DNA from: Escherichia phage T4
DNA: 64,000 nt
Reading direction: 5' to 3' (one strand)
Sequence record: OL964735.1
How positions within the stretch are numbered: position 1 is the first letter of the stretch; each line of letters opens with the position of its first letter. Below, one piece after another: positions 3,451-63,894 of this stretch. The notes under the pieces were generated by a model. That model did no database searches, was not told the origin of the DNA, and saw only the letters and a program-made list of their open reading frames with translations. The translations under genes and the position numbers were made by a program.

Positions 3451-3627
3451 TTACCCTTTAAGCAAGTCGTAAAATCCACCATTCACATGCTTAGGAGCGG
3501 AAACTAACCGAACAGCCAGCCGATGACAATCAGGACATACATCAGTATCTCTTTCAGAAATTTTCTTGATTTTTTCGTATTCTTTTGCACAGTCTTTGGA
3601 TTGACATTTATAATCATAAAGCGGCAT
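3451..3627 (-). CDS. 58-aa zinc-ribbon protein (CxxC...CxxC), positional equivalent of T4 39.2
   Basis: Translated by hand: MPLYDYKCQSKDCAKEYEKIKKISERDTDVCPDCHRLAVRLVSAPKHVNGGFYDLLKG; below the 60-aa track cutoff; fills the gap between goF and 39.1 exactly. Confidence 0.6.
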   Translation of the reverse strand: MPLYDYKCQSKDCAKEYEKIKKISERDTDVCPDCHRLAVRLVSAPKHVNGGFYDLLKG

Positions 3628-3629
3628 AA

Positions 3630-4055
3630 TTATTCCTTAAAGTAAGCTTTCAACATCTGATATAAAGACCACGCCTGATCATTATTTTCAATAGTAACTT
3701 TCATGACTGGGAATTCTGTGAAATCTTCTATTTGTTCTTGCTCTTTCTCTTCCTGCTCTTGCTCTTCAACCGCCTGATATGGATTTTCCACTTCATCAAA
3801 GAACCCAGCTTCGTTAGTAGAGAGCCAGATAAAGTTTTCGTCAAGGATATCACCGCCGGCACAACGTTTGAGTACACCTATGGATGTCATAATTTTAGTA
3901 GGACGCCCAAGATAATCAGCATCTAAAATTTTAAAAGGCTCCATACCTAAACGTCGTGCATAGATTCCGTTATCAGTATGGTCTTTAATAAAATTTTCTT
4001 GAGCTTGTTTATTTTTAAATTGATACCATTTATTAACTTCAAATTTAATAGCCAT
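3630..4055 (-). CDS. goF: GoF (comC-alpha) early protein, 141 aa
   Basis: Length and position match T4 goF; acidic C-terminal region. Confidence 0.7.
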
Positions 4056-58309: not shown

Positions 58310-58527
58310 GTCACCTTTAAGCAGTATTCTTCTACATGCTGTTTACGACCTTTCTTATCAATAAAGGTATATTCAACGAATGTTCCAATGTAGTCTTTAT
58401 CTACATCATGTGGACTATTAATTGGACATTTAGTGCGACAAATGCGTTCCCATTGACGAATAATTACTGCCTTATTCTTTGGGTCATATGGATGTGGATA
58501 ATGTATATTCATAATAATGGTTCCCAA
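58300..58527 (-). CDS. hypothetical small protein (75 aa)
   Basis: ORF in track. Confidence 0.5.
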   Translation of the reverse strand: MGTIIMNIHYPHPYDPKNKAVIIRQWERICRTKCPINSPHDVDKDYIGTFVEYTFIDKKGRKQHVEEYCLKVTWL

Positions 58528-58976
58528 TCAACAATCACAATTTCTAATTTAGAGGAATATGTATCTAAAATCCCCTCAATAATATCCCAGTTCCCTTTAC
58601 CTATGCCTGCACCAATCCTAGGCATATAGATTGTAGGTTTAATCAGTTTATTTTCACCAAACTCATTTAATTCTAACATACAATTCATTAAAGCGGAATA
58701 CTCAAAATTTGGCCCTGGTTGAAATTGAGTATAAAGATTGAAGCAGTAAGCTTTATGAGTCCTAAAGTATTTTTCATAGACTGAGTAAGAACCGAGTTTA
58801 GTTACATCACCCCATTCAGTCTGTAATTTATCAGCTTCCAAAATTTTAGGGAAAGCTTTGGTTAATTGACCCGCTACGCCTGAACCCATAGTATGAAAAC
58901 AATTACATCCATGTGCAATATTTTTACCTTCAGCGAAAAGGGCGACAATATCGCCCTTGATATATTTTACAATCAT
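58509..58976 (-). CDS. macro-domain-like protein (155 aa), putative ADP-ribose binding/hydrolase
   Basis: N-terminal KGDIVALFAEGKNIAHGCNCFHTMGSGVAGQL resembles the macro-domain GDI...AAN...GGGV.GAI signature. Confidence 0.55.
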   Translation of the reverse strand: MIVKYIKGDIVALFAEGKNIAHGCNCFHTMGSGVAGQLTKAFPKILEADKLQTEWGDVTKLGSYSVYEKYFRTHKAYCFNLYTQFQPGPNFEYSALMNCMLELNEFGENKLIKPTIYMPRIGAGIGKGNWDIIEGILDTYSSKLEIVIVDWEPLL

Positions 58977-59320
58977 CTAGTACTCAATCCTCGATTATAA
59001 GAATCTACCAAACGGTCAACCATTGAATGACAAGCGGCTTTATCTTTCTCCTCCGCAACTGAACATTCTAAGGTATTCCACTTTTTAGCATATCGTTTTA
59101 ACAATGTATCGTTTTTGTATCTGCTTGATTTATCTCTTTCTCCGTCTTTATATGCATATATTAATTTCTGTGCAAATTCAGCTTGGCATGCCTTATTTTT
59201 CCCACAATAATCTGCCGCAGTGCGGTTTACATATTCTCTAATTTCAGTATATGATGTATCTGCTGACGCAGAAGCAGAAAATGAAATTAATCCTATACAT
59301 AAAACCAAAATTTTAGTCAT
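58973..59320 (-). CDS. secreted small protein (115 aa) with signal peptide and 4 Cys
   Basis: Signal peptide MTKILVLCIGLISFSASASA; ATGA overlap with neighbours. Confidence 0.55.
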   Translation of the reverse strand: MTKILVLCIGLISFSASASADTSYTEIREYVNRTAADYCGKNKACQAEFAQKLIYAYKDGERDKSSRYKNDTLLKRYAKKWNTLECSVAEEKDKAACHSMVDRLVDSYNRGLSTR

Positions 59321-59858
59321 TTACTATTTCCAAAAGTTTATTATTTTTAAGGTAATTAGCCTTTTCTAGGACTTCAGAAGCATATTTAGAACCTGCTTTA
59401 ACATTCCATCCCGAATTATAAGAGGATATTGCTTTTCTTATATCGCCCTTATGTATATTTAACCAATAAGAAAGTTCAATGTACGCCCAGGAAGCTGAAT
59501 TGGATCGTTTATTCAACATTCTTTTTATTTCAGCATCGGTCATATTATAACCAAGTTCCTTAACTCTTGCTCGCATAGTAGGCAAATAATTTTGGAACAT
59601 TCCGTAGGCGTGATGCTTTGGTTTAGATTTTAAATTAACTCCGCCAGAGCTTTCTTGCCATAAAATGGCAGCCATTATATGACCTAATCCGCTCTTGTGG
59701 ATATTTTTGTGTGTTTTATATTTTCCATCCTTAGAAAATTGTTCCCCGAATTGATACGCGTAACGCATGTTATCGAGTTGGACATTACTGAAAGTATGCT
59801 CGGAGCTATGTGCCATCATTGAAATGGCCAATAGACCAGCGAGTAGTGCTTTTCTCAT
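59313..59858 (-). CDS. periplasmic soluble lytic transglycosylase (SLT)-like protein, 181 aa
   Basis: Signal peptide MRKALLAGLLAISMMAHS; SLT motifs ES (LWQESSG), GMFQ, SYNSG. Confidence 0.7.
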   Translation of the reverse strand: MRKALLAGLLAISMMAHSSEHTFSNVQLDNMRYAYQFGEQFSKDGKYKTHKNIHKSGLGHIMAAILWQESSGGVNLKSKPKHHAYGMFQNYLPTMRARVKELGYNMTDAEIKRMLNKRSNSASWAYIELSYWLNIHKGDIRKAISSYNSGWNVKAGSKYASEVLEKANYLKNNKLLEIVND

Positions 59859-59865
59859 GCTTACC

Positions 59866-60327
59866 TCATTGAGTTTTAATTACTGCTTTAGAAGCCTTTC
59901 CTGGTAAACGACGACTGTTGATAATTGCCATCCTACATTGAAGTGACGGGTCTTTGAACTTCTCGTTAGGTTTACAAACTGTAAATCCAAGCCAAAGATT
60001 TCCATCTGTGATTTCTAAACGTCCAGGACGATATTCAACCCCATCAATAAAATCCTCGTCAATGTCAGGACGCGGAGGCATACTCAGGAATTCATTAACT
60101 TCTAAAACATGGTCTTTTATTTTATGGAATAATTCAAAAACGTATGTCTCATCAATCTCCCGTTGAATTGCGCGATCAAGAAGATGTTGAGAATATTTTA
60201 GATGAAACGATGAGACTCCTGCTGCTTTTGATGCCTCACGAATCTCATTGTTAATTTGACGAAACTCCGACTCAAAGTGACGACGAAGCTTATTTCGACG
60301 GATAAAAACTTCTGTATTGATAGTCAT
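59866..60327 (-). CDS. regB: RegB sequence-specific endoribonuclease, 153 aa
   Basis: Length, position and N-terminus MTINTEVFIRRNKLRRHF match recalled T4 RegB. Confidence 0.88.
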   Translation of the reverse strand: MTINTEVFIRRNKLRRHFESEFRQINNEIREASKAAGVSSFHLKYSQHLLDRAIQREIDETYVFELFHKIKDHVLEVNEFLSMPPRPDIDEDFIDGVEYRPGRLEITDGNLWLGFTVCKPNEKFKDPSLQCRMAIINSRRLPGKASKAVIKTQ

Positions 60328-60354
60328 GTTATTCTCCTCTTAACTGATAGAAAA

Positions 60355-60384
60355 ATTATACCACAGTCAAGAGGAAAAGTAAAC
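60355..60384 (-). promoter_or_regulatory. T4-type early promoter for regB (-35 GTTTAC 60379-60384, -10 TATAAT 60355-60360)
   Basis: Anchored between the regB ATG and the stop at 60387. Confidence 0.75.
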
Positions 60385-60386
60385 AG

Positions 60387-60665
60387 TTATTCTTTAAATC
60401 TAATCAATTTATTCATAGACTTTGAAACTTCGGCACGAACCTCATGTAGATTTTTGAGCTGTTCAAGACGCTGCGTATAGTAAGCAATTTCATCTTCTTC
60501 GAGACAGTCCTGCGAATCTTCTTTAAGATAACGTGCATAGTCCTGGAAAGCGTTACGGACTACTTCCTGGAAGTCATCAAGACTTTGAATTTTCTTAGGA
60601 GCAACAGATACACGACGAGGGGCAGTATAATACTCATAACCAAACCCTGCGCTTAATTGAGCCAT
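60387..60665 (-). CDS. hypothetical 92-aa protein (positional vs.3)
   Basis: [16 protein letters not shown]... forms a TAATG overlap with the upstream ORF stop. Confidence 0.55.
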
Positions 60666-60931
60666 TAGTATTTTTCCTCTGGTTGGAACACTGCACGACA
60701 AGCCCACATACTGGCTTCTTTGAGTTTCGTTTTAGCAATAGTTAACTGATCGAGACTTTCAGCATAATTCTTCGCGAATTCACAGTCTTCGCAATTATCT
60801 AGTGCTTCCCAGAATTCATCATATAAAGCATCAAAGATAAGTCCTAAACGAACTTCAGCGTCTTTAATAGCATTTACTTTACCGATTTTCTCTTCAGTAT
60901 GTGGTTTATAACCCTTAATATCTTCAATCAT
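60665..60931 (-). CDS. hypothetical 88-aa helical protein (positional vs.4)
   Basis: [18 protein letters not shown]... with SD GAGGAAG. Confidence 0.55.
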
Positions 60932-61145
60932 ATTTGACTTCCTCACCAGTACATAAATCGTATTCAACTAAACGAATAGGTTCATGAATGCCATAGCCTT
61001 GAACAGAAATTTCTGTCGTAGGATAAATTCCATCAATATCACCCATATTCCACGCTTCATTAAATTGCTGTTCGCCTGAGTTACTAAACCACTCGGCGAA
61101 AGCATTTAGCACATCTTCAGAACCTTCAATAATTATCTTTGCCAT
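60924..61145 (-). CDS. hypothetical small acidic protein (73 aa; positional vs.5)
   Basis: ORF in track. Confidence 0.5.
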   Translation of the reverse strand: MAKIIIEGSEDVLNAFAEWFSNSGEQQFNEAWNMGDIDGIYPTTEISVQGYGIHEPIRLVEYDLCTGEEVKYD

Positions 61146-61507
61146 TACAAACTTTCAGTAAAGGTACGAGCGATAACGTCGCGCTGCTGTTCCGGAGTCA
61201 GAGAGTTAAAGCGAACTGCATAACCGGATACACGGATGGTCAGCTGCGGATATTTTTCCGGATGCTTAACTGCATCTTCCAGAGTTTCACGACGCAGAAC
61301 GTTAACGTTCAGGTGTTGACCACCTTCAATTTTAACTGTAGGTTGTGGCTCAATTTCAATTTCACGGGCATGCAAACCATAGAAAATTTCTGGGTCTACA
61401 AAAGAGTCCTCTTTAAAGGTTTTAGAGACAATAATTCGTGCTTGAATACCATCTTCAAAATAAATAGTACCTTTATGTGTGCCTTCAAGAATTTGATATG
61501 CTTTCAT
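61145..61507 (-). CDS. autonomous glycyl-radical cofactor (GrcA/YfiD-like) protein, 120 aa (positional vs.6, T4 Y06I-like)
   Basis: C-terminal [29 protein letters not shown] glycyl-radical motif; the 3' half is GC-rich with host-like codon usage. Confidence 0.8.
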
Positions 61508-61514
61508 ATAAACC

Positions 61515-61844
61515 TCAATTAGAAAATAAATTTATCCAAGATTGTTCTTTAATTAAAAATGGCTCAGAATCATATGCCATTAAACTTTGCGTAATTAATC
61601 CTTTAAAAGGTCCATCAATAAATTCCATGGTAAAATATGGAATTTTATTCATTAGCCGTGCATTAGGAGCAGTGCACAAAACTCTGCATCCTTTGAATAC
61701 GCCTTTTTGTAATTTGTATTGCTTGGGATAAAATTCGCTCAAAATGTTATTTTTTGCCAAAATTTCAAAATGATTCACCAATTTATTTTTAATAGTTTTT
61801 GGCGAAAAATAAAGATATTCGAAAAGCTGAGTGTCTGTCATCAT
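61515..61844 (-). CDS. hypothetical protein (109 aa from ATG at 61844; positional vs.7)
   Basis: [13 protein letters not shown]... forms an ATGA overlap with the upstream ORF stop. Confidence 0.5.
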
Positions 61845-62491
61845 TGCATTCCGATTACGAAAAACTGTGGACGAGTAATACCACCAATGCAACATTTACT
61901 ATTACAGCAGTAGTGTACGGTGTCAATATGGACACTATAAATCTTATCCATATCAGGAGATTTGACAGGCTCATCAATTATATACAAAATTCGCGAAAGC
62001 TTTAAACCTCTGAACTTGCTTCCTTTATTACCAATAAAACTGCGTACAGAATCAGTAAATAAACGAAAACGTATATCATCATTAGAATAACGCGAAAATT
62101 CCTTTTTGATGTTATTTGCAGAAATTTTAGCATAAGCTGAAGTATTAGAAAGAACAATAACTGTTCCGCCATCATACAACCAATTAGCAGCAAAGTTAGT
62201 CACAGCAATTGATTTACCGGATTGACGTCCACCATCTAGTCGAAGTGTACAATACTGTTTAAGTAAGTCTTCAAATGGCGGGATATATTCGTTTTTACAA
62301 ATTTCTTCTACTCTAGCATCAGAATGGTGTGTAAAAGCATTCATCAGGGATAGATAAGGACCAGTTAAAAATGTTCTCATTTCTTCTCTATAAGTTTGGG
62401 CCATTCCGTGGCGCATGAATTGTCCATTTCTGTATTTACCCATTACCGCGCTTGGGCTCGACCTTATTACAGGTTGGCGGGAATCCCTCAT
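61841..62491 (-). CDS. P-loop NTPase-like protein (up to 216 aa; start uncertain; positional vs.8)
   Basis: Walker A LDGGRQSGKS and Walker B-like ILYIIDEP; several candidate ATG starts. Confidence 0.55.
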   Translation of the reverse strand: MRDSRQPVIRSSPSAVMGKYRNGQFMRHGMAQTYREEMRTFLTGPYLSLMNAFTHHSDARVEEICKNEYIPPFEDLLKQYCTLRLDGGRQSGKSIAVTNFAANWLYDGGTVIVLSNTSAYAKISANNIKKEFSRYSNDDIRFRLFTDSVRSFIGNKGSKFRGLKLSRILYIIDEPVKSPDMDKIYSVHIDTVHYCCNSKCCIGGITRPQFFVIGMQ

Positions 62492-62517
62492 ATAATCATG
62501 AGGTCCAGGTTGTTCCC

Positions 62518-62883
62518 TTATGCATAAATCGCCTTACCGTAGTATTTGTACCAAGTAGGACGTTGTGCAATTTTTTCATCTAAACGAGCTTGTGATATAG
62601 CAATAGAAGCTTCATGGGGAATATAATCACCACGGAATTCCTGAGGAATATCACTAATATCCTGGACTGTAGTATCCTTGATATTAAAACCACGTTTTAA
62701 ACATTCAGCTATAAGCTCAATTTGACGTTTACGTAAGAACTCGAGCTTATCGTAAAAGAATGTAACATGACCTGCGCCAAGGATAAAAGTAGGACTGATT
62801 TTAAAATCACGAACACGTTTACCGTTAGCAACATGCTTACGAACTGCACCAAAAACACGCGGCAATTCACGATATTCAGCCAT
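62518..62883 (-). CDS. denV: endonuclease V (pyrimidine-dimer DNA glycosylase) DenV, 5'-truncated: 121-aa ORF equal to residues 18-138 of canonical T4 DenV
   Basis: [30 protein letters not shown]...YGKAIYA is identical to recalled T4 endo V from Met18 on; in-frame upstream codons read stop-T-D-Q-H-L; ATG overlaps the ipII stop (TAATG). Confidence 0.8.
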
Positions 62884-63197
62884 TAAGTGTTGGTCAGTTT
62901 ATCTTTAATTGCTTTAGCTGCTTCGATAGCCGCTTGCTGAAGGTCATCCATAGACATGCCGAACTTAGAAGCAAAGTTATCAATTTTCTTTTCGACGGCA
63001 TTCAAAGGCTTGGCCTGTTTACCTTCATTAGCGCCAGGAAGAGCGAGAATACGCTCTCTGTCAATATAAAGGCTTACAAGTTTCTTACGGTCTTTATCGG
63101 GCAAATCATGAAATGAATGGGCCTTTTTATTTACAGCGGCTTCTAATTTACCTGCGCCCACTCGCGCTTCGGCAATAAATTCTTGATATGTTTTCAT
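62883..63197 (-). CDS. ipII: internal protein II (IPII), 104 aa, with capsid-targeting N-terminus
   Basis: N-terminus [11 protein letters not shown] shared with IPIII; position upstream of denV. Confidence 0.85.
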
Positions 63198-63248
63198 ATG
63201 TTTCCTTTAAATGTAAATATTTTTATTATTCTATCCTAGAATTGTGAT

Positions 63249-63278
63249 AATATATTCACAATTCTAGGAGTTGTAAAC
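63249..63278 (-). promoter_or_regulatory. T4-type early promoter for ipII (-35 GTTTAC 63273-63278, -10 TATATT 63249-63254)
   Basis: Perfect 13-bp inverted repeat CCTAGAATTGTGA / TCACAATTCTAGG (63235-63268) brackets the -10. Confidence 0.65.
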
Positions 63279-63312
63279 TGCTTTTATTTAAGCGTCCCAA
63301 GTATAAGCTTTA

Positions 63313-63894
63313 TTAAGAATTACCACGGGCTGCATTAGCAACGGCGTAAGCGTACTGAATATTAGCGTCTTTAAACTTACCTTTAGAGGTATCTATTTCT
63401 GCCTTAAAGCCGCCTTTAGTCATAACATCGGCAAATTCTTTACGGAAAGCCATTGCATCAAGACCTTTCCATGATGATTTATGCTTGGCAAATTCAAGAC
63501 CTGCGAAGTTGACAGCTTTAGCCAATTTATTATCAATGACCCATTTACCGGCTTTAGGCACAAACTTCGGGCCTTTCTGTTTAGAGAACAGTTTTAAATT
63601 CCAGCGGCGAAGGTCTGCATCAGCTTTAACAAATTCTGAGTCTAAGTTACTAGCAACAACATCTTCAATATGAGCAAATTTAAGTCCGTCAACTTCAATA
63701 TTTAAATCGGTACGCCAGCGAAGTCCTTCCCAAGCGAAGGCTTTAAAGTCGGAAGCCTTTGTAGCTAAGTACCGTTCAATAGGAGCTGTTTTAGGGTCAA
63801 AGCCGTTTCCTGATCGGTAGGTCCACTCATCTTTGTTAATGCCTTTGGCCTTTACTACAGAAGCTTCGGCAATAAATTCTTGATATGTTTTCAT
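63313..63894 (-). CDS. ipIII: internal protein III (IPIII), 193 aa, with capsid-targeting N-terminus
   Basis: N-terminus [18 protein letters not shown]; length matches T4 IPIII. Confidence 0.88.
   Translation of the reverse strand: MKTYQEFIAEASVVKAKGINKDEWTYRSGNGFDPKTAPIERYLATKASDFKAFAWEGLRWRTDLNIEVDGLKFAHIEDVVASNLDSEFVKADADLRRWNLKLFSKQKGPKFVPKAGKWVIDNKLAKAVNFAGLEFAKHKSSWKGLDAMAFRKEFADVMTKGGFKAEIDTSKGKFKDANIQYAYAVANAARGNS

Follow-up and report, generated by a model that had tools for sequence, protein, structure and literature searches.

The vs.3-vs.8 block between denV and regB of bacteriophage T4: small packed accessory genes, two immune-signal sponges and a structured RNA ahead of vs.8

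The interval between regB and denV was analyzed in a 64,000-nucleotide stretch of the Escherichia phage T4 genome (sequence record OL964735.1, here called the window), with a focus on positions 60,387 to 62,491. The best explanation of this interval, to which we assign a probability of about 90%, is that it is the vs.3-vs.8 block of T4, a series of small, packed accessory genes located between denV and regB. Two adjacent and structurally unrelated immune-signal sponges, Vs.3 and Vs.4, are encoded in it. The block is in this sense a counter-defence island, and for this reason the genes vs.5, vs.7 and vs.8 are natural candidates for counter-defence screens. The finding as such is already known from work on Acb2 (2023), TadIV-1 (2026), Y06I (2001) and the terminase likeness of Vs.8 and its connection with Avs2 (2026). 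A conserved RNA ahead of vs.8 is possibly the only new item in the interval. A preliminary description of this DNA, made from the letters alone, had overlooked this RNA, as well as the vs.3 sponge, the GrcA-like Y06I encoded by vs.6 and the publication on Vs.8, terminase and Avs2. The six genes of the block, with product lengths in amino acids (aa), are the following:

60387-60665, minus strand: vs.3, 92 aa
60665-60931, minus strand: vs.4, 88 aa
60924-61145, minus strand: vs.5, 73 aa
61145-61507, minus strand: vs.6, 120 aa
61515-61844, minus strand: vs.7, 109 aa
61841-62491, minus strand: vs.8 as annotated, 216 aa

The identity of the locus was determined by megablast with window positions 59800-63000 as the query. 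This search gave 100% identity to T4T (HM137666), several T4 isolates and RB59, and 99.6% identity to the older T4 reference (NC_000866/AF158101). The coding sequence (CDS) features of NC_000866 and T4T match the open reading frames (ORFs) one-to-one as vs.3-vs.8, with regB and denV on the flanks. All six ORFs lie on the minus strand at the coordinates given in the preliminary description, which had taken them for equivalents of vs.3-vs.8, and the T4 and T4T annotations agree with this assignment. The TAATG/ATGA junctions that it had listed at 60665, 61145 and 61841 were also found in the sequence. The stop and start codons are joined as TAATG at 60663-60667 (vs.4/vs.3) and at 61143-61147 (vs.6/vs.5). 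At 61841-61844 (vs.8/vs.7) the junction is ATGA, in which the start of vs.7 overlaps the stop of vs.8. In addition, vs.5 and vs.4 overlap by 8 nucleotides (nt), and a 7-nt spacer separates vs.7 from vs.6. The stop/start overlaps suggest translational coupling within the block. Since each of the six ORFs has a PHROGs family match (E 1e-32 to 1e-78), there is no chance ORF among them. The older reference NC_000866 (locus L001) differs from the window and T4T (locus L002) by small indels; the lengths are 58 aa (vs.5) and 219 aa (vs.8) in NC_000866, and T4T and the window have 73 aa (vs.5) and 216 aa (vs.8).

To describe the gene content of the block in related phages, we used 40 T4-like loci, which were picked for having vs.8, and genes were detected by tblastn. 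In this set, regB and vs.1 were present in 39 loci, the exception being a locus that ends just after vs.8, and denV was located upstream in most. The genes between them were found less regularly: vs.4 was detected in 36 of the 40 loci, vs.5 in 35, vs.7 in 28, vs.3 in 21, and vs.6 in 12. The interval from vs.3 to vs.8 shows the pattern of a variable accessory island, with denV and regB as its conserved anchors.

The product of vs.4 is a member of the Acb2 family. It matched Pfam PF24729 (Acb2_Tad1_hairpin; 71.4 bits, cut-off 27; E 7.1e-20), and 88 of its 88 residues are identical to chain A of PDB entry 7UQ2, in which the molecule is named 'Vs.4'. The preliminary description had identified the ORF at the vs.4 position as the Acb2 sponge and had proposed an alignment of 60665-60931 to the Acb2 family as a check. 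This alignment was run, and the Pfam match, the full identity to 7UQ2 and the literature, in which Vs.4 and Acb2 are equated, all confirm the assignment. A commentary on Jenson et al. (PMC10449767) describes Vs.4 as a cyclic GMP-AMP (cGAMP) sponge, a hexamer that binds three cGAMP molecules, and traces the family name Acb2 to a second study. According to a 2025 Nature paper (PMC12657218), 'acb2/vs.4' was mutated by T4 to escape the Panoptes system. As the literature shows for this exact protein, the Vs.4/Acb2 hexamer binds 3′,3′-cGAMP, the signal of the cyclic oligonucleotide-based antiphage signaling system (CBASS), and starves the effector of it.

The adjacent gene, vs.3, is TadIV-1, the 92-aa T4 original. 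It is identical to the vs.3 CDS of T4T, and a PDB sequence search aligned its residues 1-92 with 9WIW, the TadIV-1 homolog from UPEC07 (E 2.6e-37). In the study of Chen et al. 2026 (PMC13243611), the resistance of T4 to type IV Thoeris was mapped to a ~3-kb segment by a T4 x T6 mating. When Vs.3 to Vs.8 were assayed singly, Vs.3 alone inhibited the defence system, and deletion of vs.3 sensitised T4 to it. The protein was renamed TadIV-1 and described as a dimer that sequesters N7-cyclic ADP-ribose (N7-cADPR) in a pocket formed from a flexible N-terminal loop. Binding of N7-cADPR was reported there for both the T4 and the UPEC07 proteins, and among the TadIV-1 homologs activity was limited to the long ones (>80 aa). 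With 92 aa, the vs.3 product of the window has the long form, and its N-terminal extension is present. According to the published work on this exact sequence, the Vs.3/TadIV-1 dimer sequesters N7-cADPR, the type IV Thoeris signal, with the result that activation of the caspase-like effector never occurs.

The vs.6 gene codes for Y06I, an autonomous glycyl-radical cofactor of the GrcA/YfiD type. This ~14 kDa protein has a C-terminal glycyl-radical domain, which matched Pfam Gly_radical with 66.8 bits against a cut-off of 22.2 (E 2.8e-18). The RVxG motif is present as RVSGYAV at residues 92-98 of 120, and the radical glycine is G95 (codon 61223-61225, minus strand). The comparison with the NCBIfam GrcA model TIGR04365 gave E 3.7e-45. 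In the case of E. coli GrcA (PDB 6OWR), the match reached E 8.6e-42, and the last ~60 residues, RVSGYAV included, are identical. As cited in PMC8683613, Wagner et al. 2001 showed that Y06I, in the same way as YfiD, serves as a replacement part that rescues pyruvate formate-lyase (PFL) after cleavage by oxygen. According to this literature, the PFL activase of the host places a glycyl radical on Vs.6/Y06I, which replaces the C-terminus of the oxygen-cleaved lyase. A vs.8-like gene together with a glycyl-radical gene is also seen beyond the close T4 relatives. In a 163-kb record (PP397179.1; locus L003, 4840-6516), an HNH-like ORF and the gene of a 217-aa Gly_radical protein lie immediately upstream of the gene for a 171-aa distant homolog of vs.8.

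The two remaining small proteins have family matches in PHROGs. Vs.5 is acidic, 73 aa long, and matched phrog_1986 at 1e-43; the 109-aa Vs.7 matched phrog_2049 at 3.6e-54, and PF26834 (Phage_T4_Y06J) is present in its homologs. The homolog search for vs.7 returned 9 proteins, several of which are fragments, and its AlphaFold2 (AF2) model was unusable (predicted local distance difference test, pLDDT, of 44). In public records, the label 'endoribonuclease' appears on homologs of vs.3, vs.7 and vs.8 (9WIW, where it is the molecule name for vs.3, and P0005, P0006 and P0102). It is an annotation error, which most likely spread from the neighbouring regB, and does not point to nuclease activity.

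The largest gene of the block, vs.8, codes for a single ATPase domain, with the following features:

61841-62380, minus strand: conserved coding region of vs.8, 179 aa, a stand-alone P-loop ATPase domain of the additional strand catalytic E (ASCE) division
62210-62233, minus strand: Walker A motif GGRQSGKS, read from the sequence
61970-61987, minus strand: Walker B motif LYIIDE, read from the sequence, with the invariant R161-G162 just upstream

A search among 5.8 billion proteins revealed 34 relatives of vs.8, nearly all of them 173-196 aa long, with a coverage of ~83% of the 216-aa query. The conservation of the motifs was determined in 29 aligned homologs with identities down to 35%. Walker A is conserved as LDGGRQSGK[ST], with D86, G88, R89, Q90, G92 and K93 invariant. 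Walker B is conserved as R-I-L-Y-I-I-D-E-P, with L169, I171, I172, E174 and P175 invariant, and its Asp is changed to Glu in a few homologs. Further invariant residues are R150, R161-G162 and, at the C-terminus, F210, G214 and Q216. In the AF2 model, pLDDT of the core is mostly 80-95, the chain is disordered before residue 40, and directly behind the strand that comes after Walker B the protein stops (residue 216; 179 aa counted from Met38). The conserved Walker A and B motifs and the RecA-like alpha/beta fold are those of an ASCE P-loop NTPase. The preliminary description had read a terminase-like Walker A (GGRQSGKS) and a DE Walker B in this ORF, and had named conservation of the P-loop and structure prediction as checks. 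Both came out in its favour: the motifs belong to the invariant core of the 29 homologs, and the model has a confident core of ASCE/RecA-like fold.

A profile search against 1.84 billion representatives gave 71 proteins of 66-259 aa at E <=0.001, and in BFVD the same fold was found in uncharacterised proteins of 140-180 aa from Proteus, Vibrio, Aeromonas, Acinetobacter, Dickeya, Klebsiella and Pseudomonas jumbo phages. The vs.8 family is a small one and consists of stand-alone domains. Among the distant vs.8-like proteins, P0065, P0073, P0075, P0082, P0083, P0092, P0095 and P0098 (E 1e-4 to 1e-8) carry G-H-[ST] for G-K-[ST] in Walker A and D-C-A or D-V-A for D-E. Judged by these residues, the G-H-[ST] proteins may be a catalytically dead sub-branch.

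At the level of sequence, the similarity between vs.8 and terminases is weak and consistent. vs.8 matched PHROG 2 'terminase large subunit' at E 1.7e-5. The Terminase_6N model matched 24 of the 29 family members (best E 5.4e-5), and matches to Terminase_6N, AAA_14 and AAA_30 were observed in 17-26 of the 29. An hhalign comparison with T4 gp17 aligned vs.8 to residues 160-274 of the latter (E 1.7e-4). In this alignment, GRQSGKS of vs.8 corresponds to SRQLGKT of gp17, and FRGLKLSRILYIIDEP of vs.8 corresponds to VRGNSFAMIYIDEC of gp17 (RG...MIYIDE). Profiles and fold together tie vs.8 to the RecA-like ATPase domains of terminases and helicases. The C-terminal RNase-H-like nuclease domain and the two-subdomain ATPase of the large terminase subunit (TerL) are absent from vs.8; the protein works or looks like the TerL ATPase core, yet it is not a terminase.

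vs.8 was also picked in a study in which T4 proteins were screened against EcAvs2 with AlphaFold 3 (Evans et al., Nat Commun, August 2026). It was described there as an 'uncharacterized ATPase-like protein', a homolog of the terminase ATPase with conserved Walker motifs. Vs.8 was modelled in the terminase pocket, and its co-expression activated EcAvs2, which resulted in toxicity. Evans et al. suggested that Vs.8 is maybe an anti-defence protein that Avs2 learned to recognise. Because the Walker A Lys, Walker B, the Arg-Gly pair and the C-terminal Gln are conserved, we infer that Vs.8 binds ATP and probably hydrolyses it. It is a 179-aa single RecA-like (ASCE) ATPase domain, either descended from the ATPase subdomain of the large terminase or convergent on it. 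As to its native role, we tentatively propose counter-defence or interference with host factors by terminase-like surface mimicry, and not DNA packaging, at odds clearly short of even.

Several points weigh against this picture of the block and of Vs.8. To our knowledge, Vs.8 has no known biochemical activity, and ATP hydrolysis by a lone RecA-like domain usually depends on a partner or on oligomer formation. The T4 protein itself scored under the Terminase_6N cut-off (12.3 vs 22 bits), and the hhalign probability for the alignment with gp17 was just 50%. Triggering of Avs2 is not the purpose of Vs.8, because it harms the phage. In the case of vs.6, the score against TIGR04365 was under the equivalog cut-off (153.3 vs 170 bits), a shortfall that is due to its divergent N-terminal part. 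Searches with vs.5 and vs.7 gave no meaningful match among Pfam, NCBIfam and PDB sequences. Finally, Vs.4 to Vs.8 showed no inhibition of type IV Thoeris (PMC13243611).

The region between denV and vs.8 is non-coding and contains a conserved RNA with a three-way-junction core. Its parts are:

62381-62517, minus strand: denV-vs.8 spacer, conserved structured RNA, 137 nt, counted in the annotated vs.8 ORF
62517-62479, minus strand: P0 hairpin, directly after the denV stop codon; the annotated vs.8 ATG (62491) is in its inner stem
62434-62483, minus strand: three-way-junction core, with the closing stem Pc, P2 (ACCU/AGGU, loop GUAAUA) and P3 (GC/GC)
62412-62400, minus strand: P5 hairpin (GCCA/UGGC), ahead of the vs.8 ribosome-binding site, with one compensatory variant

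The order of the elements is P0, the junction, a linker whose length depends on the phage, the P5 hairpin and the vs.8 ribosome-binding site. At the nucleotide level, the spacer is more conserved than the flanking coding sequence, and it shows no three-base periodicity. A 120-nt query from the spacer matched 1,079 phage records, and its central 40-45 nt are ~90% identical in unrelated phages. In Vequintavirus HdK5, the core is located in an unannotated 250-nt gap, ~450 nt upstream of a tRNA cluster. Pseudomonas phage PsgM04F has it on the strand of the tRNA genes, with tRNA-Thr on one side and tRNA-Gly on the other, and Vibrio phage F88 carries it as well. Cores inside tRNA clusters, on the tRNA strand, were found in Pseudomonas and Vibrio phages, Vequintavirus and jumbo-phage contigs. 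A scan of IMG/VR with a degenerate pattern revealed 63 stretches, on contigs of 5.7 to 360 kb. Same-strand tRNA genes were found within ~1.5 kb of the core in 11 of 20 loci that are not T4-like. The core was not found in locus L003. None of 185,579 bacterial and archaeal species genomes had a match to the core, and a bacterial or prophage origin was rejected on this ground.

The model of the core was made from 43 distinct 50-nt cores, the register of which was set by hand after other phage lineages had been added. A three-way junction fits all of these: Pc with one bulged purine, P2 (ACCU/AGGU with the loop G-U-R-A-N-A and an invariant U-G-U at the stem-loop junction), and a short P3. Standard pairs occupy 90.1% of the cells, compared with 73.3 ± 1.4% after shuffling, and none of 500 shuffles was as high; when the partners were slid by 1-3 columns, 28-40% of the cells paired. 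The covariation score was 0.42 vs 0.11 in shuffles. Three Pc pairs are paired in 43 of 43 cores with 3-5 pair types each (e.g., CG 28, GC 11, AU 4), and one P3 pair alternates between CG, UA and GC. The G-U pairs assign the structure to the transcribed strand. The covariance model (R1) matched the window once, at 62434-62483, with 64.7 bits and E 7e-21. The single-sequence fold of the T4 element was not thermodynamically unusual (z = -0.24), and RNAalifold, applied to an automatic alignment, gave small hairpins only and no three-way junction. The P0 loop and the 3′ flank are complementary in a lineage-dependent way (GGGUA/UACCC vs GGGAG/CUCCC; CCAG/CUGG vs GAGG/CCUC; CGGA/UCCG). On this basis, a pseudoknot between them in three other lineages is tentative; a per-sequence shuffle test was not significant, and in T4 no convincing partner of the P0 loop was seen.

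A comparison with the 4227 models of Rfam 15, with an E-value limit of 10, assigned no family to the element and gave just two chance-level matches in 62250-62650; with the Vequintavirus, Vibrio and Pseudomonas phage loci, Rfam returned tRNAs only. ARAGORN found no tRNA in the element, and this identity was rejected. The core sequence was not quoted in the literature that was searched. The consensus of the class reads A-CCUGURANAAGGU-CDA-GC...GC-GRUAA, with a covarying closing stem and a hairpin in front. In annotations, the spacer has for decades been taken for the N-terminal part of Vs.8. The chance that it belongs instead to a so far undescribed class of structured RNAs, widespread in phages and with a core of ~45 nt, is, in our estimate, slightly below even; if it is, a new RNA class in the best-studied phage would be a modest, real discovery. 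In T4-like phages, the element is in the leader of the terminase-like ATPase gene vs.8. It could act in trans as a stable RNA, for instance by serving as a decoy or by binding a protein, or it could regulate vs.8 in cis. Our preferred reading is an RNA, either stable or part of the leader, with a protein or a small ligand as its binding partner.

Other explanations have to be considered for this region. The annotated 216-aa Vs.8 could be right, the conservation upstream of Met38 then reflecting a coding N-terminal extension. The frame is indeed open from 62491 in T4 and annotated so in GenBank, and some distant homologs were called with short extensions that start with MRHG or MCQG. However, many vs.8 relatives have an in-frame stop 0-4 codons before the equivalent of Met38, including two that are 97-98% identical to T4. 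Among phages, the conserved bases fall in differing frames relative to vs.8, and they change by compensatory base-pair replacements and not with a period of three. Residues 1-39 have pLDDT <50 in the AF2 model, and the same core occurs in the non-coding DNA of tRNA clusters of unrelated phages. We regard a coding extension as highly improbable. Among the start candidates of vs.8, Met38 has the best ribosome-binding context, GAGAAGAA-ATG, as read from the start contexts. This context and the upstream stops make the 179 aa from 62380 the conserved vs.8 product. In the T4 reference records, the annotated gene probably contains 37 codons too many, and of the ORF 61841-62491 in the preliminary description, the frame exists but its first 37 codons are structured RNA. 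A second alternative is that the element acts as DNA, either as a promoter or as a recombination cassette of the type proposed for module shuffling in T4-type genomes, rather than through a folded RNA. Many relatives have a GTTTACA sequence, which we take to resemble the -35 box of T4 early promoters. Chen et al. (PMC13243611) drove expression from a so-called vs.8 promoter, and in locus L026 an internal-protein-like gene lies between the element and vs.8, with the 3′ block GTGCCAAGGAAYGGCCC duplicated on both sides. Against this stand the three closing-stem pairs, kept in every core with several pair types each, and the G-U pairs, which need the transcribed strand. Moreover, the GTTTACA box is absent from T4 itself, a consensus scan of 62381-62520 detected no sigma-70-like site, and the core is found on the tRNA strand of tRNA clusters in unrelated phages. 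A role at the DNA level is, in our view, improbable, although less so than the coding extension.

In the case of Vs.8, a different function can be considered: a nucleic-acid-dependent ATPase, i.e., a minimal helicase/translocase or loader, that takes part in T4 repair or replication with its neighbour denV. The terminase likeness would then come from shared ASCE ancestry. This is unlikely, since Vs.8 has one RecA-like domain and neither a recognisable nucleic-acid-binding domain nor a second motor domain, and its R-Q Walker A, RG and Walker B align specifically with gp17. The EcAvs2 model puts Vs.8 in the terminase pocket, and the neighbours on its other side are counter-defence proteins.

The arrangement of the leader in locus L026 (3394-5010 of the T4-like IMG/VR contig 3300045988_040361) was also observed in L024, L027 and L040. 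From denV to vs.8, these loci have an ipIII-like gene, the RNA element, an ipII-like gene and a second GTGCCAAGGAAYGGCCC block, in this order. An internal-protein cassette seems to have been inserted in loci of this type by recombination between the repeated leader blocks.

Outside the vs.3-vs.8 block, blastn of window positions 59300-63500 against T4T gave two perfect blocks, between which 100 bases are absent from the window. The gap is at 62897/62898, at the denV-ipII junction, and the bases are present in every matching T4 record. They correspond to 3599-3698 of the T4T locus L002 and comprise the first 37 nt of denV, a 60-nt spacer and the ipII stop codon. Because of the gap, denV starts at Met18 (121 aa) and ipII runs on to 104 aa; the lost N-terminus of denV is presumably the catalytic part. 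The junction shows no microhomology, and a gap of so round a length suggests an artefact of window preparation or an engineered deletion. On the regB side, a consensus scan gave one further candidate feature, which sits in the gap between vs.3 and regB, ahead of regB:

60355-60383, minus strand: sigma-70-type promoter-like site, TTTACT-17-TATAAT with TG, from the consensus scan only

Downstream of vs, a 155-aa ORF at 58509-58976 (minus strand) reads like a macro domain (…GCNCFHTMGSGVAGQL…); we assume that it is at the position of tk.4.

The RNA element can be compared with the stable phage RNAs associated with tRNA clusters. Like these, it is small, restricted to phages and covarying, and often lies among tRNA genes on their strand; it is not a tRNA and has no Rfam match. 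A near kind are the uncharacterised candidate structured RNAs of Fremin et al. 2023 (>10,000, unnamed; 8,495 IMG/VR candidates), and the element may or may not be among them. In the case of GrcA/YfiD, vs.6 shares the C-terminal glycyl-radical domain, that is, the last ~60 residues, whereas its N-terminal ~55 residues diverge and the equivalog cut-off is missed. The ORF 60665-60931 is the crystallised Acb2 protein of PDB 7UQ2, the type member, with no difference. Likewise, the TadIV-1 ORF is T4 vs.3 itself, the long form with the pocket-forming N-terminal loop; the structure 9WIW is that of the UPEC07 homolog, which has a 9-residue insertion near the N-terminus relative to T4. With the large terminase ATPase (T4 gp17, PDB 2O0H), Vs.8 shares R-Q before G-K-[ST], the RG pair, the hhhIDE Walker B and the ASCE fold. 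In contrast to gp17, Vs.8 has just 179 aa and lacks ATPase subdomain II, the nuclease and the regions that bind the portal and the small terminase. Judging from its position, vs.8 would be a prereplicative gene, and its terminase scores are under the curated thresholds. Ksap1 and Ksap2 are activators of Avs2 that are not terminases, and Vs.8 has likewise been reported to activate EcAvs2.

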